From IMG/VR virus record IMGVR_UViG_3300023296_001674: a stretch of DNA of 64,000 bases. One strand, 5' to 3'. This DNA is from a virus. The notes beneath the pieces were generated by a model. That model did no database searches, was not told the DNA's origin, and saw only the letters and a program-made list of their open reading frames with translations. The first letter of the stretch is position 1, and every line of letters begins with the position of its first letter. Shown piece after piece: positions 2,879-55,035 of this stretch. The position numbers were made by a program, and so were the translations under genes.

Positions 2879-3451
2879 ATGAAAATATATGAGTTATTTG
2901 AGACTAGTCAAAATACCGGATTTAAACTTTTCGTTGACCTTGATGGAGTCTTGGTCGACTTCGAAAAAGGTGTTTCTGCGTTTATGGCGGATGACATGTC
3001 GGATAAGGGTTATAAAAATTTACCGGTTATCCAAGGATATGCTATGGGCAATAATAAACAGAGTCGCGCATTCTGGAAGAAAGTTGAGATGATCGAAGAA
3101 TCGGATGCTATTGCATTATGGACAAATTTAGGATGGATGTCAGATGGTAAAAAACTTTGGGGTTATATCAATGGTTACAATCCAGTAATATTGAGTTCAC
3201 CGGGAACATCATCGAGACATATTATTGAAGCTGGTAAAAAAATATGGATTGATAGACATTTATCACCCAAGCCATCATATATATTTGAACCTGATAAGTT
3301 TAAGCACGCAAAAGGTAAACCCGGTATACAGCATATACTTATTGATGACAGTAAGAAGAAATTAGACCCATGGGAAGCTGCGGGTGGCATTGGTATATTT
3401 CATACATCTGCCTCTGATACTATAAAACAACTAAAAAATTGGGGTTTTTAA
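2879..3451 (+). CDS. HAD-family 5'(3')-deoxyribonucleotidase with MKIYELFE leader
   Basis: DLDGVLVDF, ILSS, LIDD..W.AAGGIGI motifs. Confidence 0.8.
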   Translation: MKIYELFETSQNTGFKLFVDLDGVLVDFEKGVSAFMADDMSDKGYKNLPVIQGYAMGNNKQSRAFWKKVEMIEESDAIALWTNLGWMSDGKKLWGYINGYNPVILSSPGTSSRHIIEAGKKIWIDRHLSPKPSYIFEPDKFKHAKGKPGIQHILIDDSKKKLDPWEAAGGIGIFHTSASDTIKQLKNWGF

Positions 3452-3452
3452 T

Positions 3453-4502
3453 ATGAGAGCATGGGAATTATATGAAAATCAAATAATAAATGAATTAAAT
3501 GTTGAATATCGCGGTGATACAGTCAATGATGAATCTTTTGATATTATTGTTCATCGTGGTAAAATATGGATGTATGATTCAAGTGATGATAATAATAATG
3601 AAGCACTTAAAAAGAGTATTATTGATAATTTAAAAATAAACATTGAAAGGCCAGAAGATTTAGACATTGAAGATTTGATGGCGCATGTTATGGAAGATCG
3701 ACCTGATATTATACATGGTCAAATTGTTGATGGTGATGATTTGTATTTAAGTAATCATGCCACTATCTCAAAAAGCCCACGTTCATCAAAAGCAATAAAA
3801 GATATAGTAAAACATTTCGATTTAAGCCGTGTTATGAAATCTGATACCACTGGAGAAAAAGAGGATGTTATACATCGCAGTGAAATGCAAGGAAAAGTGC
3901 CTGATATAGCATTTCACGGAACAAGTTCTGATAATATACGAAATATACTCAATAAAGGAATTATGCCTGTTGAACATGGTAATTTTGAAGATATAAAATT
4001 TCCCGATTTGGTTTTTGTTGCAACTGATCGAAATTTTGTTGATTATCATGCAACCAGTCAAGCGAAAGCAAAAGAGGCCACGCCAATTGTATTGAAATTA
4101 AAAATACCAGATAAAAATAAACTTGTATTAGATTTTGATGTAGCAGTGAGAATGTACGGAAGTGAGCATCCTGAATTAATTGATGCGGGTTATGATAATA
4201 TAGATAGTTCAGTATTTAATAACGAAGAAATGGCGAAGCATATACAGGCGGTTAATAAGGGAACAGATTTAAATACCGAGGTTGGTGTTTTTGGATATAA
4301 AGGACGTATTCCAGCAAATCATATATTAGAAATATATATAGCAGCCGATGCTGATTGGACAGTTGCACCAGATAGCGTAGAATGGATGGAAATGGATGAC
4401 AAATCGGAGTTGTGGAAAGCTCTTGATATGATAGATGCAATCGGATATTATGATCAACATGAACAAATCGAATGGGAAGATGATGAGGATGAAAACTTAT
4501 GA
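3453..4502 (+). CDS. MRAWELYE-tagged protein with ADP-ribosyltransferase/Tpt1-like C-terminal domain
   Basis: FHGTS..NI..IL.KGI.P, VFVA, VLKLKIP, GRIP..HI pattern. Confidence 0.6.
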   Translation: MRAWELYENQIINELNVEYRGDTVNDESFDIIVHRGKIWMYDSSDDNNNEALKKSIIDNLKINIERPEDLDIEDLMAHVMEDRPDIIHGQIVDGDDLYLSNHATISKSPRSSKAIKDIVKHFDLSRVMKSDTTGEKEDVIHRSEMQGKVPDIAFHGTSSDNIRNILNKGIMPVEHGNFEDIKFPDLVFVATDRNFVDYHATSQAKAKEATPIVLKLKIPDKNKLVLDFDVAVRMYGSEHPELIDAGYDNIDSSVFNNEEMAKHIQAVNKGTDLNTEVGVFGYKGRIPANHILEIYIAADADWTVAPDSVEWMEMDDKSELWKALDMIDAIGYYDQHEQIEWEDDEDENL

Positions 4503-4831
4503 GAGCATGGGAATTATATGAAGGTAAAAAACATGTTGGATATAAAGTTATGCGATATGAAAACGGCAATTTAATTGCTGGTGCGGACTCGCGTCAAATA
4601 TTTCCATCAAAAATAGGGTCTTCTATTCAAATGAAGGGTAATGGTATATATCTTGGAACCAATAAACAATATGTATTGGATTATTATTCTGGATTGGCGG
4701 ACGATGAACGATTGTTGACATTTGAATTTGATGAAGATGATATAACTACTGGAAACCTAACCGACCAACAGGTTGAAGTTAGTGTTTCTAATGCTATATT
4801 AAAGAATATAGAAGAGTTTGACCAACAGTAA
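4499..4831 (+). CDS. MRAWELYE-tagged hypothetical protein
   Basis: ORF with shared leader; stop is in frame with next ORF. Confidence 0.7.
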   Translation: MRAWELYEGKKHVGYKVMRYENGNLIAGADSRQIFPSKIGSSIQMKGNGIYLGTNKQYVLDYYSGLADDERLLTFEFDEDDITTGNLTDQQVEVSVSNAILKNIEEFDQQ

Positions 4832-5272
4832 TTGAGTGAATATAAAATGCACGACACTGACCAAGGCAAGGTGTTTCAAAATCCAACTTCATCGGGCATT
4901 GCTGGATTGTTGAATACGCATGGTATACTTAGGGGTATATTTTCAAATAACACATCTTGGGTCTGGAATGCATACAACTCGACGCATGATTATATGGGTG
5001 ATGAGCTAACTAATAGTGGATTTGATATAGCGCGGTTTGAAAATGATAGATTTGATTTTGTGATATCAAATAAGCCACAAGTTGACAATTTGGAAGAATG
5101 GGATAATATGCGTGAAGTGTCGGATGGTGTATGGTCACAAGTATATGGGGAAGATTTAAACGACGCGATGAAGAAAAAGCGTTTTTCTAAAATGTTTCCA
5201 AAACCAGTCGACGAAAATGAAAAAGTCGACCTTCCTGATATTGAAGTCGGTGATGAATTAAAAGATAAATAG
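4832..5272 (+). CDS. hypothetical protein (possibly 3' half of 4499 gene)
   Basis: Same frame directly after TAA; no clear RBS. Confidence 0.5.
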   Translation: MSEYKMHDTDQGKVFQNPTSSGIAGLLNTHGILRGIFSNNTSWVWNAYNSTHDYMGDELTNSGFDIARFENDRFDFVISNKPQVDNLEEWDNMREVSDGVWSQVYGEDLNDAMKKKRFSKMFPKPVDENEKVDLPDIEVGDELKDK

Positions 5273-5290
5273 TATTGGAGGTATGATGCT

Positions 5291-6112
5291 ATGAGATATT
5301 TAATATATGCACTTTTGAACCCAACAACTGACATGCCATTTTATATTGGATGGACTGACACTAAACAAAAAGGTATTAAACGACCATTTGAGCACTTTAA
5401 TGAAGAACGACGTCAGGGTGAAAAAATAACATCGGGAAATAGATTGAAGCTGAATACTATACGCAAAATGCGTAAAAATGACATAGAGCCGAGTGTTGAA
5501 GAGATATATTACACCGATGATTTTGATCATTCTTTAGATATAGAAAAAATGTTTATATCACATTGGGGCAGACGGGATAAAAACGAAGGAATATTAACCA
5601 ATCTAACCGATGGTGGGCAAGGAACGGTGGGTGTAAAAGATTCGTTGGAAACACGGCGAAAAAAATCTATCGGTAGAATAGGAAAAAAGCATACTGAATA
5701 CTCCAAGCAGTTAATCAAAGAAAAAAGAAAACTTCAATCGCCGACAATATATTCGGATGAAACTAGAAAACAAATGAGCAAGAATGCTTGGATGCGCAAT
5801 AATAAAGGAAAAACATATGAAGAGATGTATGGCATAAATAAAGCAAACGAAAAGAAAAAAAATCAATCTGATTATCTTCGTTTATATAGAGCGAATGAAG
5901 AAAATGAAGAAAAGCGTAAACTTGCTCATAGGTTGACATGGATTAAAAAAATGAAAAATGTTTATATTGATATATTTAGGTTATTAGACGATGGTATTAA
6001 ACAGTATATTATTGTTGATATGTTAAATGTAAGCGTTGATACTGTTCGTAAGGCGAGATTGAATCGCGCTGATATTGAGCATGATATTAATATTATAACA
6101 ATCGAGGGTTAA
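5291..6112 (+). CDS. GIY-YIG homing endonuclease with NUMOD3-like repeats
   Basis: YLIYAL..PFYIG, GILTNLTDGGQG, HTEYSKQLI; GATAAATA and GGAGG upstream. Confidence 0.85.
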   Translation: MRYLIYALLNPTTDMPFYIGWTDTKQKGIKRPFEHFNEERRQGEKITSGNRLKLNTIRKMRKNDIEPSVEEIYYTDDFDHSLDIEKMFISHWGRRDKNEGILTNLTDGGQGTVGVKDSLETRRKKSIGRIGKKHTEYSKQLIKEKRKLQSPTIYSDETRKQMSKNAWMRNNKGKTYEEMYGINKANEKKKNQSDYLRLYRANEENEEKRKLAHRLTWIKKMKNVYIDIFRLLDDGIKQYIIVDMLNVSVDTVRKARLNRADIEHDINIITIEG

Positions 6113-6118
6113 ATAACT

Positions 6119-6829
6119 ATGCGTGCATGGGAAATATTAGAGAATGATGATGTATTAAATTTAAATCCGATAAAAACTGGTGATACCGTTTATGTTGGAA
6201 AATTTAAAAATCGCAAAGCTGAAGTAAAGGGGTTTGAAACGGATGATCATGGTCAGCCCGTACTCAATACAACCAAAGGAAAGCATAAATTATTTAAACC
6301 AAGAATTGATAAACTTAAACCTAAAAACTTGGACGAAGGTAGCCACGAAGACGACGCTGAAGCCTATGCCGCACAACATGGATTAGAGATCGCTGGATGG
6401 GAAGGAAGTGGTGATATGGGTGAGGCTTATGTCACTAATAAGAATACCATTATTAAAGTAACTACTGACAAAACTGAAATGGCAATGGCAGCAAAGTTGG
6501 TTGGTCAAACATTGTCCAATGTTGCTGATGTATACGATGTTCAAGACCATATTATACATATGGAATACTTGGACACCACGGGCGTAGATGATGTATATGG
6601 TGAAGTATCACAATATGATAACGGTGATGGCGTAGAATACATCGATGCCGATGAACATGAAGGTATAAGCGAAGAAGCCATAAAAATGATACAAGACCTT
6701 AGTTATGGAATACATGAACTTGGTAGGAATGGCATTCAAAATCTTGATATCAAGGATGATAATATCGGCAAGAAACCAAATGGTGATTATGCGATGTTTG
6801 ATATGTCGGATGCTAAAAGAGGTGCATGA
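6119..6829 (+). CDS. MRAWEILE-tagged protein kinase-like protein
   Basis: GSGDMGEAY, IIKVT, MEYL, DIKDDNI, FD motifs after a small N-terminal GKFKN domain. Confidence 0.65.
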   Translation: MRAWEILENDDVLNLNPIKTGDTVYVGKFKNRKAEVKGFETDDHGQPVLNTTKGKHKLFKPRIDKLKPKNLDEGSHEDDAEAYAAQHGLEIAGWEGSGDMGEAYVTNKNTIIKVTTDKTEMAMAAKLVGQTLSNVADVYDVQDHIIHMEYLDTTGVDDVYGEVSQYDNGDGVEYIDADEHEGISEEAIKMIQDLSYGIHELGRNGIQNLDIKDDNIGKKPNGDYAMFDMSDAKRGA

Positions 6830-6831
6830 TA

Positions 6832-7752
6832 ATGAGAGCATGGGAACTTTTTGAAAATGAAATAAACGTGAAAGTTAAAGATGCGTCAGATACATTTGGT
6901 AGAGATGGTGCAGAGCAAGTGTTTTATACTGATACTGCGACAAAATCGCGTATAATAATCGCACGTAATCATAGACCTGATGGTTATGCATCAGTTGTGG
7001 AATTATTAGTTCCAGAAGAATTTAGAGGGACGGGCATTGGTAAAAAATTATTAGATAGAGCGATGCAAGATAATCCAAAGATTATGGGTCAAGTGTCATC
7101 AAAAGCGGCGGCAGTTAATGCTTATAAGGCTGGACGTCGACCATATGAGCAACCAGACGCATCATTAGATGATGTATTTAAATCGATAGATCAAGATTCG
7201 TCGGTTAATCTAATGACTAATGAATCCGCCGCACATTATAATGATTATTTTGATGCTAACGCATTAAAAGACCCATCAAAGACAAAATATGGCTCGAATG
7301 AAAAACTTATTACGATGACGCCTGATGAATTTTTAAGTATGGCTGAACATATACCGGCTGGTGCTTCTACTGATAAAGCAGAAAAAGTTAAGGGGTTGAT
7401 AGATTCTGGTACGAAATTTGATTCTGTGCCACATATAGGCTTTACACATGATGGTAACGGTGTAGCCACCGCAGTAGGACACGAAGGTCGTCATAGAGTG
7501 ATGGCACTTAAATCTTTAGGAATAAATGAAATACCAGTATTGTTAACATCTATAGGTGGCGGAGGTGGCAAAATACGATGGGATCAACAATCAGAAAAGA
7601 CTCGCGATACAATAGAAGGTGTTTGGCCTACGGTACTTAAAGGCGAAAGTGGTGGTTCTATAAACTTTCCAATACCAGATATGAGACAGGCGAATGAATC
7701 ATTGACAGTTTTGTCGCCACATGATAAATTAACGAACAATAGATACAGTTAA
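6832..7752 (+). CDS. MRAWELFE-tagged GNAT acetyltransferase / ParB-like fusion
   Basis: VPEEFRGTGIGKKLL (GNAT motif A); HEGRHRVMAL (ParB/Srx-like). Confidence 0.65.
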   Translation: MRAWELFENEINVKVKDASDTFGRDGAEQVFYTDTATKSRIIIARNHRPDGYASVVELLVPEEFRGTGIGKKLLDRAMQDNPKIMGQVSSKAAAVNAYKAGRRPYEQPDASLDDVFKSIDQDSSVNLMTNESAAHYNDYFDANALKDPSKTKYGSNEKLITMTPDEFLSMAEHIPAGASTDKAEKVKGLIDSGTKFDSVPHIGFTHDGNGVATAVGHEGRHRVMALKSLGINEIPVLLTSIGGGGGKIRWDQQSEKTRDTIEGVWPTVLKGESGGSINFPIPDMRQANESLTVLSPHDKLTNNRYS

Positions 7753-7763
7753 AGGATAGTGAT

Positions 7764-9026
7764 ATGAGAGCATGGGAATTATATGAAAATGCAGGCGGCG
7801 ATGCATTGCCATCAGAACAGATGGATTTGTTTCAGTCGTTGCTGACTAAACCCGTAACGGATATTGGCGCGTTGTATAAGAATGCAGGGCATGATTTCCG
7901 TTTTGTTGGTGGTAGCGTTCGTGATTTATTTTTAGGTAAAACACCAAAAGATAAAGATTTTTCCACGACTGCTACACCACAAGAAAGTAGCAAGTTGCTG
8001 CGCGATGCAGGATACACCACTATCGAAAACGAAAATCAATTGGCGCATGGAACTATCATTGTTAAAATCAAAGGCGAAGATGATTTTGAAATCACCACTT
8101 TGCGTGCTGATGAAGAAACTGATGGTCGTCATGCGACTGTAAAGTTTGTAACTGATTGGAAAACCGATGCAGCAAGACGTGATTTGTCTTATAATGCAAT
8201 GAGTCTGGATTTGGAAGGCAATCTTTATGATTATTTTCATGGTGTAGATGATTTGAAAAAAGGAACATCTAATTTTGTTGGCGATTCTGATCAAGATTCT
8301 GAGCAACGCGCTACGCGCCGTATTGAAGAAGACTATCTTCGTACACTGCGCTATTTTAGATTCCAAGGTAGATTGCCAAAACCGCAGTTTGATGAAGGTA
8401 TTTTAAAAGCAATTAAGAACACTGCGTATGGTTTGAACCAATTGTCTGGTGAGCGCGTTTGGGATGAAATGCAAAAAATCTTAAGTGGTGATCATACTCG
8501 TAAAATCTTGGATATGATGCATAAAACAACGGTTGATGAGAATATCGGTTTGCCTCTTAGATATATTGATAATATTGATGTTGTAAAAAAGCATACCAAT
8601 AACTCTGCCACAATTTTGGCATCATTGATTAAGGATGAAGATCAGTTGAGAGAAATCGCTTCTACTGATGGATGGGCACTGTCTAATACTGCTGAAAACA
8701 TCATCTTGTTTATTATCAATCATCGTAAAAATGATATGTCTTATACAGATGTGAAAAATATGTGGTTCAATCCAAAAGTTGATAATATGTATATCAGCGA
8801 GTTGATGAAATATATGGGAAAAGATGGAATACTTAATAAATTACATCAAGAGAAGGTTGAAAAGTTTCCAGTTGCGGGTAAAGATTTAATTGCAGCAGGA
8901 TTGACACCAGGTCCACAAATGGGCGCATTGTTAAATGATCTTAATAAAGAATGGGTAAAATCTGGACACACTAAAACTTGGACTGATGATGAAATATTGG
9001 ATATTGTGAGGAAGGCACAAAAATGA
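7764..9026 (+). CDS. cca: CCA-adding tRNA nucleotidyltransferase (class II), MRAWELYE-tagged
   Basis: VGGSVRD..PKDKDF, EITTLR, DAARRDLSYNAM, EDYLRTLRYFRF, SGERVWDE. Confidence 0.92.
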   Translation: MRAWELYENAGGDALPSEQMDLFQSLLTKPVTDIGALYKNAGHDFRFVGGSVRDLFLGKTPKDKDFSTTATPQESSKLLRDAGYTTIENENQLAHGTIIVKIKGEDDFEITTLRADEETDGRHATVKFVTDWKTDAARRDLSYNAMSLDLEGNLYDYFHGVDDLKKGTSNFVGDSDQDSEQRATRRIEEDYLRTLRYFRFQGRLPKPQFDEGILKAIKNTAYGLNQLSGERVWDEMQKILSGDHTRKILDMMHKTTVDENIGLPLRYIDNIDVVKKHTNNSATILASLIKDEDQLREIASTDGWALSNTAENIILFIINHRKNDMSYTDVKNMWFNPKVDNMYISELMKYMGKDGILNKLHQEKVEKFPVAGKDLIAAGLTPGPQMGALLNDLNKEWVKSGHTKTWTDDEILDIVRKAQK

Positions 9027-10105
9027 GAGCATGGGAATTATATGAAAATAGTGATTACGATGGTGGTGGATGGTTAAATGTGAAATCTAAAACATTTATC
9101 CCCACCAAAGGGTGTTATCACGTTCTTGCTATATTTCATAACATGGAAAAATTTGGGTTAACTCCAGAAAAAATGAAATCTATTCCAGCCTTTTCCAAAT
9201 GGTTTGAATTGGACTGGGCAAATATAACTGGTAACAACGATCCAGAAGATTTGAAGTCGTGGTGGATGGATTTAGACCCACATGGCAAGATTCCAACTTT
9301 AAGTGGAAATGGGGTAGAACATAATGCGGATGGTAATGAATATTTACTCGACGGTGATATGGAAATTATTGAATGGATGAATAATCAAGGATGGGTTAGA
9401 ACAATACGCCATAAAGATATGGGTAAAATGGAAACATCTATTCAAGGTAAAGATTTGAAACAAATTCAACGTGCGGCAAATTTTTTTGATAAAGAATATG
9501 GAATTGAAACATTATATTATGATACTAATAATTTAAGAGACGGAAAAGAATTAAATGGATATGAATTAAACCATTTTTTGAAATATGGAAATATTAATTT
9601 TAGAAAAATGGATGAAGGTGATATAGTATTATCAAATGCTGAAAAGCAATGGATTAATCCATCTTCCAAAAATTTGGTGGTTGTTTCATCGACTATGCAT
9701 CACACACAAATGGCACATGCATCACCTGAAAAGTTCGGACTTTCTGGAAATCTATTTAAAGATTATGAATATCCAATAGACGACAATGGAAAACCGGCGC
9801 AATTCGATGTTAATGTAGCAACAAAAATGTTTGATGCTGGTTGGGTAAGAACAAGAACATCTGCCGCTGGGTTTGGTATGGGGGCAGATGTTCATTGCAT
9901 TGAATTAAACGTCGCCGCTATGGCATTGCGCATGCTTAAAGAAAAATTCAATCATTTATCTGTAGCCACCATAGAGTTAGGATATGACACCACTCCTACA
10001 AATACAACACATGAACTTAGAAACGATGAAAATGGTCGTGGGCCACTTAAGACATTTATGAAAACTGGTAAAATCGTAAAGCCGTCTAGGATGAATAATT
10101 TTTAA
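9023..10105 (+). CDS. MRAWELYE-tagged hypothetical protein with two GWVR repeats
   Basis: W.N..S/K...H...P/EKFGL...GWVR occurs twice. Confidence 0.7.
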   Translation: MRAWELYENSDYDGGGWLNVKSKTFIPTKGCYHVLAIFHNMEKFGLTPEKMKSIPAFSKWFELDWANITGNNDPEDLKSWWMDLDPHGKIPTLSGNGVEHNADGNEYLLDGDMEIIEWMNNQGWVRTIRHKDMGKMETSIQGKDLKQIQRAANFFDKEYGIETLYYDTNNLRDGKELNGYELNHFLKYGNINFRKMDEGDIVLSNAEKQWINPSSKNLVVVSSTMHHTQMAHASPEKFGLSGNLFKDYEYPIDDNGKPAQFDVNVATKMFDAGWVRTRTSAAGFGMGADVHCIELNVAAMALRMLKEKFNHLSVATIELGYDTTPTNTTHELRNDENGRGPLKTFMKTGKIVKPSRMNNF

Positions 10106-10122
10106 AATAAAAGGATAATAAT

Positions 10123-10839
10123 ATGTTATTAATGGCTAATGGGTGTAGCAATACACACGGTATGGATTCATATAACGGCGAGGTGTGCGACGAGAATAGG
10201 AATCTTGCATTTCCTAAGCATATTGCCGATCATTTTGATATGGATTATCTTAATATAGCACATCCATGTGTTAGTAATGAATATATTGCACATACCACTA
10301 TTGATTGGATCGAAAATTGGATTGAAGACGGTGGCACATGTGAAGAATTGTTTATAGTAATTGGTTTGACCGCTAGCGTTAGAAAGACGTTAGTTAGTGA
10401 TGAATATGGAATATATACATGGAATACTGGTGTAAAAAATGGCGGAATTAGTGCATTTACTGCTGAACAATTTGATATTGTAGAAGATTATTTTAAATTG
10501 TGGTTAGAGTGTGATACAAGTTCTGATTATCACAACTCAACAAGTTACCATCACGTTAATTATTTGCATTTATATTTGAAAGAAAAAAATATAAAACATT
10601 TCATGATCAACACTTGTAATATGTTCACTGATTATTTACCAGAAAATAGACAATATATGAAAAAATTAGCTACGTATGTAGAATGTGCATCTTATAACGA
10701 TAGAGGATGTAATATGTATCCATATTACAAAAATTATAAACCCGCCCCTAGAGGACATATAACGGGTGAGACACATGGTTTATTAGGTCAAAAATGCATT
10801 GAATATATTACAAATCATGAATTATTGATTGACAAATAA
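10123..10839 (+). CDS. SGNH-hydrolase-like protein (DUF6071-like)
   Basis: ANGCS.T.G, N.A....SN, GH...TH; paralog at 48472. Confidence 0.6.
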   Translation: MLLMANGCSNTHGMDSYNGEVCDENRNLAFPKHIADHFDMDYLNIAHPCVSNEYIAHTTIDWIENWIEDGGTCEELFIVIGLTASVRKTLVSDEYGIYTWNTGVKNGGISAFTAEQFDIVEDYFKLWLECDTSSDYHNSTSYHHVNYLHLYLKEKNIKHFMINTCNMFTDYLPENRQYMKKLATYVECASYNDRGCNMYPYYKNYKPAPRGHITGETHGLLGQKCIEYITNHELLIDK

Positions 10840-10879
10840 CACCAGCATGATATAATCTATTTTTGATGAAGGATTAATA

Positions 10880-11689
10880 TCATGGGCGATTTTTACAGTT
10901 CTCATTGTGCCATCGATTTAGATTCCCCAAATTCGCCTCTTTATCACAATATTTACATTTTATCTTGATATGTTTTTTGCCATAAAAGCCATTTTTTTCG
11001 CCTTTGGTTGCTTCGCTTAACTTTTTTCTTGTTTCTTCAGAAGCATGTTTGCCTTTTTTTGCTTCACTCATTTTTTTAAGAATTTCATCAGAATAAACAT
11101 CGGTTCTTCCTTTATTCCATGGTATACAATTCTTATGTGCGTCGCTTTGTTTTTTACGAGTTTCTGTTGATGTCGATTTGCCATAATTGGGATTTTTCAC
11201 ACCTTTGGTTGCTTTACTTATTTTTTGTTTAGTTTTCTCAGAATGATAGTTGCCTTTCGATGCTTCACGCATTCTTTTAATAGATTTTTTTGTGTGCTTT
11301 CTACCCTTGAGTGCTTTGCTTATTTTTTTACAAGTTTCGTTTGAATGTGATTTTCCTTTTTGTGATTCGTTTAGATTTTTTCTATTTACTTCATATAATT
11401 TTGCATTAATATATCTTTTATGTTTATTTTTATTTGACACGCCCATCATATTAAACGCAAATATCATTTTACGCTTATTATTCCCTTCGGTGAATTTTGT
11501 TAATAGACAATGACAAATGAAATGCTCACGGGCAGTCAGGATGGCGATGTTGATTTTATCATTATTTCCACCTAAAGATTTTGGTATAATGTGATGTTTT
11601 TCGGTATAGATATTTTCTGATAATGTTCTTGACTTAGCACTATTGATTATATTATAATACCACTTGGTATATTTATTTTGTAAATACAT
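10880..11689 (-). CDS. HNH homing endonuclease with NUMOD3 repeats
   Basis: EKHHIIPKSLGG..N...LTAREHFICH; repeated HSEETKxKIS-type motifs. Confidence 0.9.
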   Translation of the reverse strand: MYLQNKYTKWYYNIINSAKSRTLSENIYTEKHHIIPKSLGGNNDKINIAILTAREHFICHCLLTKFTEGNNKRKMIFAFNMMGVSNKNKHKRYINAKLYEVNRKNLNESQKGKSHSNETCKKISKALKGRKHTKKSIKRMREASKGNYHSEKTKQKISKATKGVKNPNYGKSTSTETRKKQSDAHKNCIPWNKGRTDVYSDEILKKMSEAKKGKHASEETRKKLSEATKGEKNGFYGKKHIKIKCKYCDKEANLGNLNRWHNENCKNRP

Positions 11690-11828
11690 ATGCTGTAACT
11701 CCGTTTAGTTATAGTGTAGTTGGATGTTGGAAGCATCGTGAACTACATTAGTATTTATCATAATTCCTTGACAAATTTGCTTCACTGGGGTATTATTAGT
11801 CAGTATTTTTTATTGAAGGATATTTGTT

Positions 11829-12728
11829 ATGGGTGGAAATGCATTTAAATCATTAGAGTTATCAAGAATCAATCGCGATGATGTTGCGGCTACGGTGGAG
11901 TATATTGTCAAAATTTTGGATATTGATGGTTTCACTAAAGAATATGCAATGTCATCATTAATGGGAAGTACCGGAAAATCTAAAAATAGCGGCGATATAG
12001 ATTTTTGTATGAATACGCATGAAGCACAGTTCATCGATGATGATGTGCGTCCGATATTTGACAAGCACGCAATGTTAAAGCGGTTGCGCGAAGTATTACC
12101 AGTGGAACGAGTTAATACGCAGACTTTAAAAATGGGAAATATTATGACTGTTTTTCCGATTGCAAGCAACGAAGCTAATGGGCTTATTCAGGTCGATTTT
12201 GTATTTGGTCATTTTGACCTATTGCAGTTTACCCATTATAGCCCAGGTGAGGAATCAGAGTTCCGGGGTGTGTTTATTAGTCAATCTTTCGGAATTTTAG
12301 CAAAGATGCTTCATAAATATTACGATGCAACTGACCCTGAAACTGGCGAACGAACAGGTCGTGTAGGATTGCATCTAAATCTTGAACAAGGATTGTATTG
12401 TCGTTGGGAATCGCGCCGTAAACCAGGAATGGGCTGTAGTGTAACTACGGCAGACGAATTTGAAACAAGATTTGATTGTCCTAGATATCCACGACTTGGA
12501 TATATTACAAATCCTGATGTAATTGTTTCAATTATTCTCGGCGATGATGTGACACACAGCCAAGTGAATACATTTGAGAAAATTGTCGAATATGTTCGGG
12601 TGAATTTACCTGATCGGTATGAAGAATATTATGAACGGTTCATGATGTCTGCTGGTGGTTCAAGTATCGCCAAGCAAAACGGTTATGATCCAGATGATAT
12701 CGCAAATCATCCAATTTGGAAAAGATAA
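11829..12728 (+). CDS. Pol-beta-like nucleotidyltransferase fold protein
   Basis: MGGNAF, GSTGK...GDID, QVDF motifs. Confidence 0.6.
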   Translation: MGGNAFKSLELSRINRDDVAATVEYIVKILDIDGFTKEYAMSSLMGSTGKSKNSGDIDFCMNTHEAQFIDDDVRPIFDKHAMLKRLREVLPVERVNTQTLKMGNIMTVFPIASNEANGLIQVDFVFGHFDLLQFTHYSPGEESEFRGVFISQSFGILAKMLHKYYDATDPETGERTGRVGLHLNLEQGLYCRWESRRKPGMGCSVTTADEFETRFDCPRYPRLGYITNPDVIVSIILGDDVTHSQVNTFEKIVEYVRVNLPDRYEEYYERFMMSAGGSSIAKQNGYDPDDIANHPIWKR

Positions 12729-50069: not shown

Positions 50070-51281
50070 ATGAATGAGTTATGGGTATTATTTTTACAAG
50101 TATTTGATATGACGTTTTTTGGCATGACCACTTCGCATATATTGGGTGGTTCCATTGTGTTGTTATTGTTTATTGTTTTGCGAAAATTGTTCGCGAAAAC
50201 AGTTGTTGCATATTTGACTAAAATGGCTAAAAAAACTAAAAATGAATATGATGATCAAGTCCTAGAAGCGATAACTGAACCCATTAAATTGGTTCCTATT
50301 GTCTTTGGTATATTCTTTTTAACGCAATGGTTCGCGCTTCCGGTTGATATCGTAACGATGTTGCTCAATTTGACAAAATCTATGATTGCATTTGCGTTAT
50401 TTTGGGCGGTATATAATTTATTGGAACCATTCACTGTGTTATTGGAGAGTGTTTTGACTAAAATAACCGCAGACAACGAAACATTATATGCAGAAGAATT
50501 TACAGGATTGATTGTCAAAGGATTGCGCATCACTGTAGTGGGTGTTGGTGGCATCATCGTCCTATCACAATGGGGCGTGGATGTTATGCCTGTATTGGGC
50601 GGATTGGGTATTATGGGCATGGCTTTTGCTTTTGGTGCACAAGATTCTATTGCTAATATTTTTGGCGGTGTAAAGATTTTGCTGGATGGTCAATTTAAAC
50701 GGGGAGATTGGATTAAAACGCCAGATATTGAAGGAACTGTAATGGAGATTGGTATCGCAACCACAAAAGTTCGTGAGTTCGACAAAGCGGTTACATCTAT
50801 TCCTAATAAGCAGTTATCTGATGCGACAATCAAAAATTATAGTAAAATGACCAATCGTCGAGTTAAGATGACATTGGGTCTTGAATATAGTTCTACTGCA
50901 AATCAATTAGAGAATGTAGTTGACCGTATTAAAGAATATTTGCAAAACAATCCCACGGTAGCCCAACCTGGCATCGATAAGGTTGTTCAGATGGTGCATT
51001 TGGTGAACTTTGCTGGTTCCTCTATTGATATTAGTTTGTATTACTTTACCAAAACGATAAAATGGACTGAATGGCGTGAAAACGTTCAAGATGATATGTT
51101 GGCATTCAAGCGAATCGTTGAAAAAGAGGGTGCAGCCTTTGCCTTTCCTAGCCAAAGTATGTATCTTGAATCAACGCCAACCAAACCTAAATCGGTTGAA
51201 GACGTTCCACGATTGGCGTATGTTGGTAAGAAAAATGTGGCACAGGCGGGTGATGATGAAGAAGGTGACGGAGATGGCTAA
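50070..51281 (+). CDS. mscS: small-conductance mechanosensitive channel
   Basis: AFGAQD.IAN.FGG, GDWI, EG.V.EIG..TT, IPN, FAFPSQ. Confidence 0.92.
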   Translation: MNELWVLFLQVFDMTFFGMTTSHILGGSIVLLLFIVLRKLFAKTVVAYLTKMAKKTKNEYDDQVLEAITEPIKLVPIVFGIFFLTQWFALPVDIVTMLLNLTKSMIAFALFWAVYNLLEPFTVLLESVLTKITADNETLYAEEFTGLIVKGLRITVVGVGGIIVLSQWGVDVMPVLGGLGIMGMAFAFGAQDSIANIFGGVKILLDGQFKRGDWIKTPDIEGTVMEIGIATTKVREFDKAVTSIPNKQLSDATIKNYSKMTNRRVKMTLGLEYSSTANQLENVVDRIKEYLQNNPTVAQPGIDKVVQMVHLVNFAGSSIDISLYYFTKTIKWTEWRENVQDDMLAFKRIVEKEGAAFAFPSQSMYLESTPTKPKSVEDVPRLAYVGKKNVAQAGDDEEGDGDG

Positions 51282-51320
51282 TAAATATAATTGTAAATTT
51301 AATTGGAGTGTCAATACTAA

Positions 51321-52481
51321 ATGGAAGACGAATCTATAAACAAATATAATTCATGGTGTAAATGGCATCCTCTTAAGACGGTTATGTTGGGAAGATCATA
51401 TTATCCTGAATATTATCGTGATATAAAAAATGCAAAAATCAAAGATTGTCTTGTTCGCATCGCAGAAGAAACAGAAGAAGATTTTTTGAATTATAAAAAA
51501 GTGCTTGAGGATTTCGGCTGTGATGTTATTAGGCCAGATTTGAATATATCCGATTCCATTATGGATGATATGGATAATGGTAAAATACAAACACTTCAAC
51601 GACCTCCAGCGCAAGTTCGAGACGCACAGTTGGTAATTGGCAATGAACTTGTTTATACATCAAGAGATCATCCTGCGATTCGTGAAAAATTGCAAGAATA
51701 TAATAATTCCGACGTTAATGATTGTTATGAAAAATTCAAATTTATTAGACGAGACAGTTATCATTCAAAAATGACGAACGAATGGCCTTCTTATGATGAT
51801 TACATGGCTGATAATTTTGGCACAATTGACGACAGTGCATTAAAAGAAATTAACGAATTCATTCGTGATATAAATCGTAGATATAATTTTTCTGGACCAC
51901 ATATGACATGTGTTGGAAATCGAATATATTTAGACACCAAAGAAGTTCACAAAGAAGTATGGGACACGTTAATCGCTGATTATCCAGATCATGAATTTGT
52001 ACAAGTTAAGATTGGCGGTCATAATGATGCGTGTTTTCATACATTGAAAGAAGGTGCCATATTATCACTACATCGGTATGAAGATTATTCAGAGACATTT
52101 CCTGGTTGGGACGTATGCTATCTACCGAACCAATCATGGGATTTGGTTAAACCATTTCGTGATTTAAAACGACAAAATTCTGGAAAATGGTGGCTACCAG
52201 GTGAAGAAAAAAACGATGATTTTACTAATTTTGTTGAGGCTTGGCTACAAGAATGGGTTGGATATTGTGAAGAAACCGTTTTTGATGTTAATGTATTGAT
52301 GCTTGATGATAAGCATGTATGTGTCAATAATTATAATAAAACAGTATTTGATTATCTAAAAAAACATAATATAGAACCCATTATTTCTCCATTTAGGCAT
52401 AGATTTTTTTGGGACGGTGGGTTGCATTGTATCACGTTGGATTTATTTCGTGAAGGATCGATGGAAAATTACTTTAAATGA
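51321..52481 (+). CDS. amidinotransferase-family protein
   Basis: W.PL..V.LG, GGH.D, F.DGGLHCIT. Confidence 0.75.
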   Translation: MEDESINKYNSWCKWHPLKTVMLGRSYYPEYYRDIKNAKIKDCLVRIAEETEEDFLNYKKVLEDFGCDVIRPDLNISDSIMDDMDNGKIQTLQRPPAQVRDAQLVIGNELVYTSRDHPAIREKLQEYNNSDVNDCYEKFKFIRRDSYHSKMTNEWPSYDDYMADNFGTIDDSALKEINEFIRDINRRYNFSGPHMTCVGNRIYLDTKEVHKEVWDTLIADYPDHEFVQVKIGGHNDACFHTLKEGAILSLHRYEDYSETFPGWDVCYLPNQSWDLVKPFRDLKRQNSGKWWLPGEEKNDDFTNFVEAWLQEWVGYCEETVFDVNVLMLDDKHVCVNNYNKTVFDYLKKHNIEPIISPFRHRFFWDGGLHCITLDLFREGSMENYFK

Positions 52482-53713
52482 AATCAAATTTTTGTATACT
52501 TCCATGGATACATTCTTACACCGATAATTCAGGAAACAGGCGGCTATGTTGCAAGAGTAATGCCAATATCGGAACGGTTGATACACCGCTAAAAGAGTTT
52601 TGGCATGGTGATGAAATGAAAGATATACGAACGCGTATTCTAAACAATGAGCGCATAGATGAATGTAAAAGTTGTTGGATATCTGAAGACAAAGGTTTGA
52701 TATCTATGCGTCAGGTTCAAACCAATGAGTGGGCTACAGAAGTTTCATTAAAACCAGAAGCAGCGTTAATAACACCCATTGAAGATATTGAAGTTATAAC
52801 ACCACAAATGCCGTTTGTGTTTTTAATCGGTGCAGGATCGTTATGCAATTTAAAATGCAGAATGTGTGGTCCCAATAATAGCAATCTCATAGAAAAGGAA
52901 ATGAAAATACATTTCCCAACAGAACAGTATTTCAATAAAACGGGCAAAGAAGAATGGTTTAACGATCAAGACACCAGAGATGAAATGCTCGATATAATGT
53001 CAAACAATACCTATAATTTTATAGAATTGGTCGGCGGAGAGCCATTATTGAATCCGTTGATAATAGATTTTTTGAATTCATGTGTTAAAACTAGAATATC
53101 CGAAAAGACCGTTATCAAAATTGTTACAAATGGTACAATTGTATCAACGGAATTATTGAATATATGTGAAAAATTTTATAGATGTAAAGTGTCTTTTAGT
53201 ATAGATGGCGTCGAAGCAGAACAAGAATATATAAGATTCCCATCAAGATGGAGTAAGGTATCTACAAATTTAATAACAGTTATGAAATATTTTAAAGACA
53301 AACCTCATTGTTCAATGAAAATCGGATGTACCGTTCAATTGTTTAACATTTTAAATTTGGATAAATTTTTATTATGGTTAGAAGTTTTGAAAAAAGATCA
53401 TGATTTAGAGGCAACAATAGGACTTAGTATATTACAGTTTCCCGAAATGTATAGATTGGAAATGCTGCCGATAGAAACAAGAAAAATGATAGCCGATAGA
53501 TTACAGCCGTTTGTGAATAGTGAATATTTAATACAGCAACATTCAAGACCTCTATCTGATTTGGTCGATTGGCTCAGAACACACGATAAGTGCATATATG
53601 ATGAAAACAAAGATCGTTTTTGGTTCAAATCGAATACAATGGACAGAGTAAGAAAGCAAGATATTAAAACGGCATTACCAGAACTATATAATATATTAAA
53701 AAATCAAGATTGA
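52478..53713 (+). CDS. radical SAM protein with twitch/SPASM domain
   Basis: FC.LPW, CC, CNLKCRMC, GGEP, TNGT, SIDG. Confidence 0.88.
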   Translation: MKSNFCILPWIHSYTDNSGNRRLCCKSNANIGTVDTPLKEFWHGDEMKDIRTRILNNERIDECKSCWISEDKGLISMRQVQTNEWATEVSLKPEAALITPIEDIEVITPQMPFVFLIGAGSLCNLKCRMCGPNNSNLIEKEMKIHFPTEQYFNKTGKEEWFNDQDTRDEMLDIMSNNTYNFIELVGGEPLLNPLIIDFLNSCVKTRISEKTVIKIVTNGTIVSTELLNICEKFYRCKVSFSIDGVEAEQEYIRFPSRWSKVSTNLITVMKYFKDKPHCSMKIGCTVQLFNILNLDKFLLWLEVLKKDHDLEATIGLSILQFPEMYRLEMLPIETRKMIADRLQPFVNSEYLIQQHSRPLSDLVDWLRTHDKCIYDENKDRFWFKSNTMDRVRKQDIKTALPELYNILKNQD

Positions 53714-55035
53714 TTCATCTCTTTCATTTCTGGGCATAGTTCAAAATAATTTTGATTTCGTTCTTTATCTAGCATGTTTGTATACGAGTTGAATTGCTCG
53801 ATCATTTTTTGATCTTTGGATACATTGTTGTGAAGATATTCAATCGTTGCTTTGATGTTTTGTATATTTTGATTGTAAACATGGGTATATTCTTCGGTTA
53901 CATCGTATTGTGTTTGTAGAATAATTTCCAAACGTTCGATAGCCTTTTGGCGCAAGTTGTCTGTTAATATATTCACGCATAGATATGGCGGATTCATTAA
54001 TAAATTTAGATTTATACGCATTTTATTTTTTATGATAAAATCGAGGAATTTATCAAGATATAAAACAGTGTACATATTTACAGTGCATACCACCGTAAAT
54101 CCGAATTTAGATGTTCCGTGTTTTTCCTCGAGATTTGCATATGTCAACATGTGCTTTTTTATAGTATCCCAATTGCTTGGATATCTTGAATATTCTTGAA
54201 TATCACCATAACCATCAACTGATCCACACGCCCATACCGCTTTAAATTGTTGTATTAAATCTAAAAATGATGGTTTGATGTTTGTAAGGTTTGATACAAA
54301 CACGAATTCGAGATTGTCAGCATAACCTTTGTCGACACACGACTGCAATAAATCGTGCAATGGTTTAATCAAACTTGGTTCACCACCAGTTGCTTCTAAT
54401 CTACGGATATTGGGTAAATGTTCGTGTATTTCTTCCCATACCCTTGGATTTTCAACCCATGAATTTATTTCTTCATTTTGACCTTCATATATTTTATTAG
54501 ATGACAATAACGGCATGGATTCGGTTAAAGTTGGATATTTTTTTTGTAACGTCAGTGTTTCTTTTAGTATTTCACTACTAGATATGCCGTCGCATATTCT
54601 ACATTTTAAGTTACATAAATTACCGAGTTTCAAGTCGAATTGTATTGGCAGTTTATCGGTGTGTCCAGTTTCGGATGTTTGTTCCACTAATGTGTTTATT
54701 TCGTCGTCGGTATAACGATCATTGCTTCTGTTTCGTGCACTATATTTACCAGATTCTTCTTCGGTGTAACATCTTTTACACCAATCCAGTTTTTCACCTG
54801 AAAGCATTTTTAATCTTGCTTCCTTCATTGCATCTGCATTCCAATATTCTTTTAAGGTATGTGTGTTCCAGTTGAACGCTTTAGTGTGTTTTGTTATTGG
54901 TTCTATGTTTTCTGGCATTCCACCTTCTGCAATAGTTCCTTCGTTGCTATGACAGCACAATCTAAAGTTTCCATTAGGGCGATGTGTGGTATAAACCCAC
55001 GGTACGGTACAGAATGTTTTATTTGAATCGTCCAT
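53704..55035 (-). CDS. radical SAM protein with twitch/SPASM domain
   Basis: FC.VPW, CNLKCRIC, GGEP, SVDG..EY.RYPS.W. Confidence 0.88.
   Translation of the reverse strand: MDDSNKTFCTVPWVYTTHRPNGNFRLCCHSNEGTIAEGGMPENIEPITKHTKAFNWNTHTLKEYWNADAMKEARLKMLSGEKLDWCKRCYTEEESGKYSARNRSNDRYTDDEINTLVEQTSETGHTDKLPIQFDLKLGNLCNLKCRICDGISSSEILKETLTLQKKYPTLTESMPLLSSNKIYEGQNEEINSWVENPRVWEEIHEHLPNIRRLEATGGEPSLIKPLHDLLQSCVDKGYADNLEFVFVSNLTNIKPSFLDLIQQFKAVWACGSVDGYGDIQEYSRYPSNWDTIKKHMLTYANLEEKHGTSKFGFTVVCTVNMYTVLYLDKFLDFIIKNKMRINLNLLMNPPYLCVNILTDNLRQKAIERLEIILQTQYDVTEEYTHVYNQNIQNIKATIEYLHNNVSKDQKMIEQFNSYTNMLDKERNQNYFELCPEMKEMNQS

Follow-up and report, generated by a model that had tools for sequence, protein, structure and literature searches.

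The genome fragment studied here, a stretch of 64,000 nucleotides (nt) referred to below as the window, forms the last 64 kb of the 194-kb IMG/VR record IMGVR_UViG_3300023296_001674 (G000 hereafter; 35% G+C) and encodes, between positions 2879 and 10105, an array in which proteins with unrelated bodies begin with the same short leader. Six of the open reading frames (ORFs) start with MRAWE(L/I)(Y/F/L)E and a seventh with MKIYELFE, all on the plus strand. The presence of this shared leader on unrelated bodies is a solid, confirmed observation. On the strength of our analysis and of comparative genomics, we consider it likely that MRAWELYE and MKIYELFE are short capsid-targeting sequences (CTSs) of the T4 type, by means of which the enzymes behind them would be packed inside the head of the phage and injected. 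This had been proposed in the original prediction, and every computational test turned out in its favor: the presence of a gp21-type protease gene, the CTS-like layout of the residues, the L/I-x-E ending, the late-promoter motif, the addition of the leader to enzymes that lack it elsewhere, and its spread among relatives.

A shared leader on unrelated proteins

The leader reads MRAWELYE in the ORFs starting at 3453, 4499, 7764 and 9023, MRAWEILE at 6119, MRAWELFE at 6832 and MKIYELFE at 2879. In the first four it is specified by exact copies of the 24-mer ATGAGAGCATGGGAATTATATGAA, from which the copy at 6832 departs by three mismatches, while the one at 6119 specifies similar residues with other codons. 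The six MRAWE-type starts and four identical stretches of 24 nt that had been noticed earlier are thus borne out by the ORF translations and by exact matching, with no match of any kind to the 24-mer in 100 shuffles (0 expected by chance). A motif search of the whole 194-kb record, proposed as a check along with the original prediction, found MRAWE nowhere besides the array. Aligned to each other, the leader genes are alike from the ATG onward; past codon 8 or 9 the likeness breaks off sharply, and their upstream flanks show no relationship. With the codon usage of this genome, the probability of the same codons being used for the same eight residues is 0.047 per gene, and that of identical codons in three further leader genes is about 1e-4; hence, the four identical 24-mers point to recent copying or homogenization rather than to codon bias alone.

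Comparison with the T4 capsid-targeting sequences

In phage T4, IPI, IPII and IPIII, which are internal proteins, as well as Alt carry a CTS that is removed by the prohead protease gp21 (Mullaney & Black 1996, reviewed in PMC9026906, PMC3012670). For the packaging of IPIII its first 10 residues are sufficient; of these, residues 4 and 7 act in targeting and residues 8 and 10 direct processing. Cutting by gp21 takes place after L/I-X-E, the T4 propeptides are 7 to 65 residues long, and T4 has packaged foreign proteins up to the size of beta-galactosidase (PMC9026906). A stretch of 30 nt that encodes MKTYQEFIAE is identical between ipII and ipIII in the T4 record, where the starts of ipI and Alt read MKTFKEF and MELITELFDE, respectively. 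The leaders of the window show a comparable arrangement, with Trp4/Leu6/Tyr7/Glu8 in MRAWELYE and Tyr4/Leu6/Phe7/Glu8 in MKIYELFE, and residues 6-8 of all seven conform to L/I-x-E (L-Y-E, I-L-E or L-F-E). Thus, as with the T4 internal proteins, a short N-terminal leader is found on unrelated proteins with DNA that is identical between genes, an aromatic or hydrophobic character at positions 4 and 6-7, an L/I-x-E ending and a gp21-type protease; furthermore, an ADP-ribosyltransferase (ART) is found among the cargo, as is Alt in T4, and the loci vary between related phages.

There are also clear differences from T4. The leader has 8 residues here and 9 in most relatives as against 10 in T4, and the proposed cargo consists mostly of 20-48-kDa enzymes, seven of them in one putative operon, in contrast to the small basic proteins of T4. 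Unlike Alt, which is of the R-S-E type, the ART of the array belongs to another clade with an HGT motif and has Tpt1/PARP as its nearest relatives by profile. Moreover, we are dealing with a distant jumbo relative of T4, for which packaging is predicted. As for the T-even phages themselves, Repoila and colleagues are said to have reported (EMBO J, 1994) that the internal-protein loci are polymorphic, with variable cargo genes bounded by a conserved leader; these loci reportedly come from close T-even relatives and encode small anti-restriction-type proteins.

Head genes and prohead protease of the phage

The capsid protein, which shares 79.5% identity with its counterpart in Sinorhizobium phage Phosso (469 kb) and 66-69% with the counterparts in Vibrio phage 2.275.O, Atu_ph07, PA5oct, GAP32 and CBB, places the phage by sequence as a Rak2/Phosso-type jumbo phage with a distant relationship to T4. 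The contigs with the closest arrays measure 247,918 bp and 570,750 bp, and since array proteins are found on the latter, the 194-kb record is probably a fragment of a much larger genome. At G000 50596-51252 it encodes a gp21-type prohead protease (Peptidase_S77, PF03420, 78 bits) flanked by portal, scaffold and gp23-type capsid genes in the T4 order, with the scaffold gene at G000 51265-52500. Protein searches recovered a gp21-type protease in all four of the four complete 405-608-kb relatives as well (44-61% identity); in five fragmentary relatives, which are 16-72% complete, searches for Peptidase_S77 gave no match. The capsid protein itself displays L-M-E before S at the position aligned with the T4 gp23 cut site, L-T-E before A. 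CTS-like starts are also seen on other late genes of the same genome (MKITELIKE, MKLWEL..., MLLSELFDD and MLISELLDN), with MRAYEFIKE opening a 69-residue gene 20 nt after TATAAATA and MKLSEFVPKE a small gene between portal and protease.

The MLLSELFDD and MLISELLDN starts belong to two small late-region proteins (G000 106662-106973 and 112770-113180); they resemble the T4 Alt start MELITELFDE and have an Asp where the cleavage Glu would be expected. In T4, an Asp in this position is reported to permit targeting and block cutting (PMC9026906). Separately, a protein of 121-123 residues with an MRAWELYE start is encoded on two JGI contigs of 189 kb and 61 kb (L155:1033-1398 and L164:1080-1451; 48-49% G+C), and its C-terminal part is 52-57% identical to the small head-module protein encoded between portal and protease in the phage studied here. 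Its neighbors in L155 are a serine recombinase, a tyrosine integrase and a methylase-like gene, and this locus may represent an island or satellite with a leader-tagged prohead-core-like protein.

Late-promoter motifs

The gene starting with MKIYELFE had been described as directly following a late promoter, and in agreement with this the late-promoter-like GATAAATA occupies 2844-2851 on the plus strand, 27 nt ahead of the ATG at 2879. Upstream of the genes of this genome, no other 7-mer is as enriched as ATAAATA (36 observed, 4.2 expected), which precedes the portal, sheath, tube and small head-module genes. Within the array, GATAAATA recurs 19 nt upstream of an endonuclease candidate starting at 5291, with the ATAAATA motif at 5265-5271. 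A promoter scan, in which the count of sigma-70-like sites is no higher than in shuffles, detected no strong site of this kind in the region before 2879. Between 2879 and 10839 there are no terminator-like sites other than one weak 5-bp stem in the CCA-type gene (7809-7824, plus strand). The ip genes of T4 have promoters of both the early and the late kind.

The leader as an addition and its spread in related phages

The homologues of the array phosphatase and CCA-type enzyme in Phosso have no leader: both begin at the enzyme body, the nucleotidase homologue doing so directly at its catalytic motif. In the window, the leader of the CCA-type enzyme and an 11-residue linker stand ahead of a retained Met20 that corresponds to the Phosso start. 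The leaderless orthologues, together with the retention of the ancestral Met, show the leader to be grafted on. Phosso has only four CTS-like N-termini, and no N-terminal 5-mer is common to three or more unrelated ORFs in either Phosso or Vibrio phage 2.275.O; the genomes of these two phages also have no match to the GNAT protein starting at 6832.

By sequence comparison, the leader is conserved among relatives as protein, with differing codons. MRAWELYE opens the orthologues P0004, P0028 and P0040, MRAWELNE opens P0006 and P0035, and MRAYEF... opens P0005 and P0029. For instance, P0004 is a 65% orthologue of the protein starting at 9023 with the leader being the same, and each half of the latter protein occurs singly behind a leader (MRAYEFLLE in P0005, MRAWELNE in P0006). 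Likewise, orthologues of the protein starting at 6119 have either MRAWELYE or MRAYEF... leaders. The comparison of the locus across related phages that had been suggested earlier therefore finds the leader kept both on orthologues and on shuffled modules. In the ART family, with 398 representatives, the strict leader pattern is found in 43 of the 150 listed; many further listed members start similarly, e.g., with MRARDFLIEM, and those from KVP40-like vibriophages start with MKNLKSFMEE.

A second recurrent element is a KOW/SH3-like module of about 55 residues that is highly basic, has the core GKFKNRK...KLFKPR and is nearly invariant in at least 143 viral contigs. In proteins that differ otherwise, it either follows a leader immediately or forms the C-terminus, and it may serve to bind DNA or the core. 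A search with this module yielded 80 IMG/VR loci (L057-L136), on which our leader counts are based and many of which share tail and head genes with the genome of the window. Up to 7-9 leader genes follow each other in the arrays of these loci. An M[RK]..E start is seen in 153 of the 2634 distinct ORFs of the 80 related contigs, as compared to 0.67% at internal Met residues; among such starts, I/F/L/V occupy position 6 in 97%, and positions 8-9 show an enrichment of Glu. The resulting consensus of the relatives, M-R-A-x-E-F-I-x-E, repeats the E-F-I-A-E of T4. A metagenome scan for the tag pattern gave 31 matches, about a third of which are chance occurrences within high-GC bacterial ORFs; besides these, it recovered pieces of related phages. 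The exact 24-mer and the degenerate MRAWEL(Y/F)E pattern had no match in IMG/VR besides the record itself, megablast of the array against isolated phages returned none, and a search for related loci with the protein starting at 9023 found none.

Pfam searches with 82 distinct leader proteins of the related contigs identified hydrolases of the cell wall (Glyco_hydro_19 with PG_binding_1, and Phage_lysozyme2), domains of polyvalent proteins (LPD23 and ART-PolyVal), NUDIX, NT5C, GNAT, amidoligase, CCA enzymes and several DUFs. The original prediction had held that the tag on clearly early, non-virion proteins would speak against packaging; proteins of this kind were looked for among the 82, and the Pfam matches include no replication or transcription core protein.

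Proteins of the array

Five different folds or families, namely HAD, ART, kinase-like, GNAT and Pol-beta, are found behind the one leader. By profiles and folds, the earlier description of the bodies as an unrelated set stands for the nucleotidase, ART, kinase-like, GNAT, CCA-type and uncharacterized proteins, and the ParB assignment made with it holds at the level of a motif. The first gene (2879-3451, plus strand, as are all genes of the array) couples the MKIYELFE leader (2879-2902) to an NT5C/HAD-type phosphatase with a DxDGVL motif; it matches PHROG 2643, a 5'-3' deoxyribonucleotidase, at 2.6e-21 and has weak matches in the PDB to 5'(3')-deoxyribonucleotidases. The second (3453-4502; leader at 3453-3476) encodes an ART-fold enzyme, whose AlphaFold2 (AF2) model has a predicted local distance difference test score (pLDDT) of 91.3 and a Foldseek probability of 1.0 to ART catalytic domains including those of DarT1 and Tpt1. 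Its family profile matched the RNA 2'-phosphotransferases Tpt1/KptA at 0.0025, and in the model the leader, predicted with low confidence, is separate from the fold. Single-sequence searches of the PDB were uninformative for the ART, GNAT and phosphatase proteins.

The third leader gene (4499-4831, with the TAA stop at 4829-4831) has a body of 110 residues for which the searches recovered no family and no homologue. It is followed, across that one TAA, by either an in-frame continuation or an untagged ORF (4832-5272), the last 19 residues of which (5207-5263) are a fragment of the KOW-like module, with 74% identity over 19 residues to the start of the P0035 module and 55% over 33 residues to P0028. 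Inserted next is a GIY-YIG-like homing endonuclease candidate (5291-6112) with the N-terminal motif IYALLNP...PFYIGW, which has paralogues elsewhere in the genome and in relatives; Pfam had no match for the two GIY-YIG-like genes, the endonuclease call being made from the motif.

Downstream, the gene at 6119-6829 encodes MRAWEILE, the basic KOW/SH3-like module (6152-6316) and a mini protein-kinase-like domain of 165 residues (6338-6826) with template modeling (TM) scores of 0.62-0.83 to Pkinase/ABC1/APH clusters for its Atlas structure and a weak Pkinase match (0.1). The gene at 6832-7752 combines MRAWELFE with a GNAT domain (6853-7236; pLDDT above 90, Foldseek probability 1.0) and a second module (7240-7680) with a GHEGRHR motif of the ParB/Srx-like kind. 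This module is 52% identical to part of P0009; as its AF2 model has a pLDDT below 50 and does not confirm a ParB fold, it is ParB-like by the GHEGRHR motif only. The CCA-type gene (7764-9026) consists of MRAWELYE (7764-7787), the 11-residue linker and a class-II CCA-adding-type nucleotidyltransferase from Met20 (7821) onward, with matches to PolyA_pol at 4.3e-29 and PolyA_pol_RNAbd at 4.6e-10. Against the NCBIfam CCA tRNA nucleotidyltransferase model NF009814 it scores 161 bits (3.7e-47), which is below the equivalog cut-off of 290 bits, so that CCA-adding, A-adding and poly(A) specificities are not separable by profile. The last leader gene (9023-10105) encodes MRAWELYE and a two-module protein with no fold match in Atlas.

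An untagged ORF of uncharacterized function (10123-10839) ends the putative operon, and further downstream on the same strand lies an untagged gene for a Pol-beta-type nucleotidyltransferase-like protein with a GS...GDIDF motif (11829-12728), which is preceded by two sigma-70-like promoters (11629-11658 and 11768-11796), both having 11 of 12 matches. A promoter that fits the sigma-70 consensus perfectly (10829-10856, plus strand; TTGACA, 16 nt, TATAAT, with an upstream TG) lies where the array ends and is directed into the antisense of an HNH/NUMOD3 endonuclease gene (10880-11689). Elsewhere, the window encodes a vWA-domain protein (113-949) and a MscS-type mechanosensitive channel (50070-51281).

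The phosphatase and the CCA-type enzyme as a pair

Tagged CCA-type enzymes recur in relatives, with the leaders MRAWELFE in L148, MRAFELYE in L160 and MLINEV in L102, L104 and L112. A single polypeptide of 688-810 residues behind one leader unites the phosphatase with the CCA enzyme in L105, L118 and L130, a fusion which suggests that the two enzymes act in one pathway. Judging from their sequences, the pair probably heals tRNA 3' ends, with the phosphatase removing a blocking phosphate and the CCA enzyme rebuilding the end. T4 repairs tRNA against PrrC by means of Pnkp and Rnl1, the 3'-phosphatase of Pnkp being of the HAD class. The array resembles these enzymes and the CCA enzymes of jumbo phages in pairing a CCA-adding-type enzyme with a DxD-type HAD phosphatase. 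However, the known tRNA-repair enzymes are made after infection, while here there is a packaging-type leader, a fusion in three contigs and no adjoining ligase. The CCA-adding enzymes of jumbo phages have been presumed to be repair enzymes (PMC7824862). We found no report of a packaged CCA-adding enzyme in the literature, and in the accessible part of the Atu_ph07 supplement text the CCA enzyme appears in rows of the annotation table only, with no virion mass-spectrometry entry.

Relationship to the polyvalent proteins

For the polyvalent proteins of phages and conjugative elements, packaging and injection along with the DNA have been predicted (Iyer, Burroughs, Anand, de Souza, Aravind 2017; PMC5512222). 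Their catalogue includes ARTs and, next to these, GNATs, together with kinases that have no C-lobe, Pol-beta nucleotidyltransferases and ParB domains of the DdrB-like kind. The array matches this domain repertoire in its ART, mini-kinase and GNAT folds, and by motif only for ParB. Specifically, the GNAT module of the protein starting at 6832 shows 52-73% identity to internal modules of proteins that also carry ART-PolyVal (PF18760). The two systems differ in that polyvalent proteins have 2-15 domains per chain, whereas the array proteins have one or two each, and every one of them its own leader; leader proteins of about 700-1460 residues do exist in relatives. They also differ in the route of loading, which we propose to be a T4-type CTS and protease for the array, as opposed to MuF, portal fusions or zincin-like peptidases for the polyvalent proteins.

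Cassette turnover

Two related arrays illustrate how the content of these loci changes. The 5.8-kb contig L160 (39% G+C) has eight tagged genes in a row: first a phosphatase (MRLRELME), a zinc-ribbon protein, a protein with the KOW module and another domain, and a 90-residue protein, and then a CCA enzyme (MRAFELYE) and three uncharacterized proteins (MRAWELFE, MRAYELTE and MRAYELTE), after which comes the untagged Pol-beta-like gene that closes the array of the window too. In L148, a CCA enzyme (MRAWELFE) is followed by a small tagged gene and then by the closing, again untagged Pol-beta-like gene. Comparison of the window with these two shows that the frame of the array is kept, with the phosphatase first, then the KOW gene, the CCA enzyme and the closing nucleotidyltransferase, and that the cassettes in between differ. 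Turnover between related arrays is thus visible against the window, in line with the cassette exchange postulated in the original prediction. The Pol-beta-like family of the gene at 11829 is tagged with MRAHEFLLEQ in L128 and elsewhere forms the C-terminal domain of leader proteins of about 1000 residues; from these sequence contexts, it seems that this enzyme is either made early or delivered.

Within the window, the fragment of the KOW-like module ends the ORF at 4832-5272 just before the endonuclease candidate, and an intact module restarts behind the recoded leader. The stretch 4829-5272 looks like the scar of an endonuclease-linked cassette replacement; it could also be a split gene or the result of a nonsense mutation. 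Given the 30 identical nt in T4 and the homogenized 24-mers here, it is plausible that the leader DNA itself serves as the crossover point.

Alternative explanations for the leader

Instead of being a packaging signal, the leader could serve for docking to, or recognition by, a partner other than the prohead core, e.g., a chaperone, a multi-enzyme assembly or a radical-SAM/SPASM enzyme acting as a maturase. This we regard as unlikely, though less so than the other alternatives. G000 has four radical-SAM paralogues with an N-terminal SPASM domain (window 52478-53713 on the plus strand and 53704-55035 on the minus strand; G000 628-1938 and 72172-73515), and in 18 of the 80 related loci such genes stand co-oriented among leader genes, several of them directly upstream of one. 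However, the remaining 62 loci have no radical-SAM gene within 10 kb, the eight tagged genes of L160 come with no radical-SAM enzyme, and in G000 the nearest such gene is about 42 kb from the array and has neighbors without the leader. Furthermore, a leader of eight residues with an acidic character offers no Cys-, Ser- or Gly-rich core for modification, and docking would leave both the L/I-x-E ending and the T4 precedent unexplained. A Ser-rich tag of the FVSNSSS type (about 16 residues) is found in no frame of G000. A role for the 24 nt in the mRNA, as a translation-initiation enhancer or an operator for a RegA-kind repressor with the peptide being incidental, might be suggested by the four DNA-identical copies, which exceed the prediction from codon bias (~1e-4), and by the A-rich codons of ATGAGAGCATGGGAATTATATGAA directly after the start. 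Yet the copies at 6119 and 6832 and all eight leaders of L160 retain the residues with changed codons, variants such as MLINEV and MKINEI have the residue pattern in common and not the bases, nothing upstream of the leader ATG is conserved, and with only M[RK]..E imposed position 6 is still hydrophobic in 97% of cases and Glu recurs at 8-9. As relatives keep residues rather than codons, we consider such a role very unlikely.

Equally improbable, in our estimate, is a leader that governs stability or timing, for example as an N-degron or as the target of a cellular protease, and thereby limits how long potentially toxic enzymes persist in the producing cell. It is true that ART, kinase, GNAT and possible nuclease bodies could harm that cell and that the leader is modeled with low confidence apart from the fold; nevertheless, the data indicate no degradation pathway, the leader pattern is that of substrates of a protease encoded by the phage itself, and harmless small late proteins as well as a head-module protein carry a leader of the same type. 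Finally, the adjacency and common orientation of the leader genes and their eight shared first codons might recall a tandem duplication from one ancestral gene, of which the common start would be a relic. Here the distinct folds of the bodies (HAD, ART, kinase-like, GNAT and Pol-beta) exclude their common descent, the likeness stops at codon 8-9 and the Phosso orthologues have no leader, so that we give this origin almost no credence.

Several points nonetheless weigh against capsid targeting. The leader has 8 rather than 10 residues, and its resemblance to the T4 CTS is one of pattern with no demonstrable homology. The ATAAATA motif is short with an unconstrained first base, and a sigma-70-like site at 7702-7730, before the CCA-type gene at 7764, could mean early expression of that enzyme as well. 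The gene at 10123 and the ORF at 4832 have no leader despite lying in the array, and the interleaving of radical-SAM/SPASM genes described above leaves room for another partner. If about 5-10% of the genes of a region carry the leader, many protein species would have to be accommodated per head. The phage is uncultured and known from DNA alone, and tblastn against isolated phages returned no match for the KOW-module protein and the protein starting at 9023.

Proposed mechanism and implications

For capsid targeting, we infer the following course of core binding, cleavage, packaging and ejection, together with the enzyme targets and the recombination mechanism. The seven leader genes would be transcribed late as one operon. 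Forming an amphipathic turn at the N-terminus, in which position 4 is aromatic and positions 6-7 are hydrophobic, the leader would bind the scaffold core during prohead formation, and the gp21-type prohead protease would then cut after L/I-x-E at residue 8. Once trimmed, the enzymes would remain beside the DNA inside the head and accompany it into the next host, thereby acting before any phage gene is expressed. In terms of function, the cargo may be viewed as an unbundled polyvalent tool-kit (ART, mini-kinase, GNAT and perhaps a ParB-like protein) along with the phosphatase/CCA pair, with the leader and the basic KOW-like module marking the borders of cassette gain, loss and recombinational homogenization. 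More tentatively, and as a rather doubtful extension, the array could combine a preloaded tRNA 3'-end repair kit with unbundled, individually exchangeable polyvalent effectors as a general feature of the uncultured T4-related clade with genomes of 400-600 kb. Under this extension, the injected pair would heal tRNAs before the first phage protein has to be made, in cases where abortive-infection toxins of the host have trimmed or phosphorylated their CCA ends or blocked them in another way.

The principle of the T4 internal proteins is already known; what is new is the shorter leader, the exchangeable operon of whole enzymes and the giant uncultured clade in which it is found. If the capsid-targeting interpretation is true, the T4 mechanism would represent a general plug-in means of loading whole enzymes in a large clade of uncultured giant phages. 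The cargo would include protein modifiers, a pair for the repair of tRNA ends and perhaps a nuclease, and the polyvalent repertoire would be tied to a defined mechanism of loading. A start conforming to the rule M-R/K-x-x-E-hydrophobic...E would then predict injected counter-defense proteins from metagenomes, and the leaders would be available as short tags of natural origin with which to load foreign proteins into phage capsids. In particular, a packaged CCA-adding enzyme would constitute a new kind of counter-defense in the first minute of infection.

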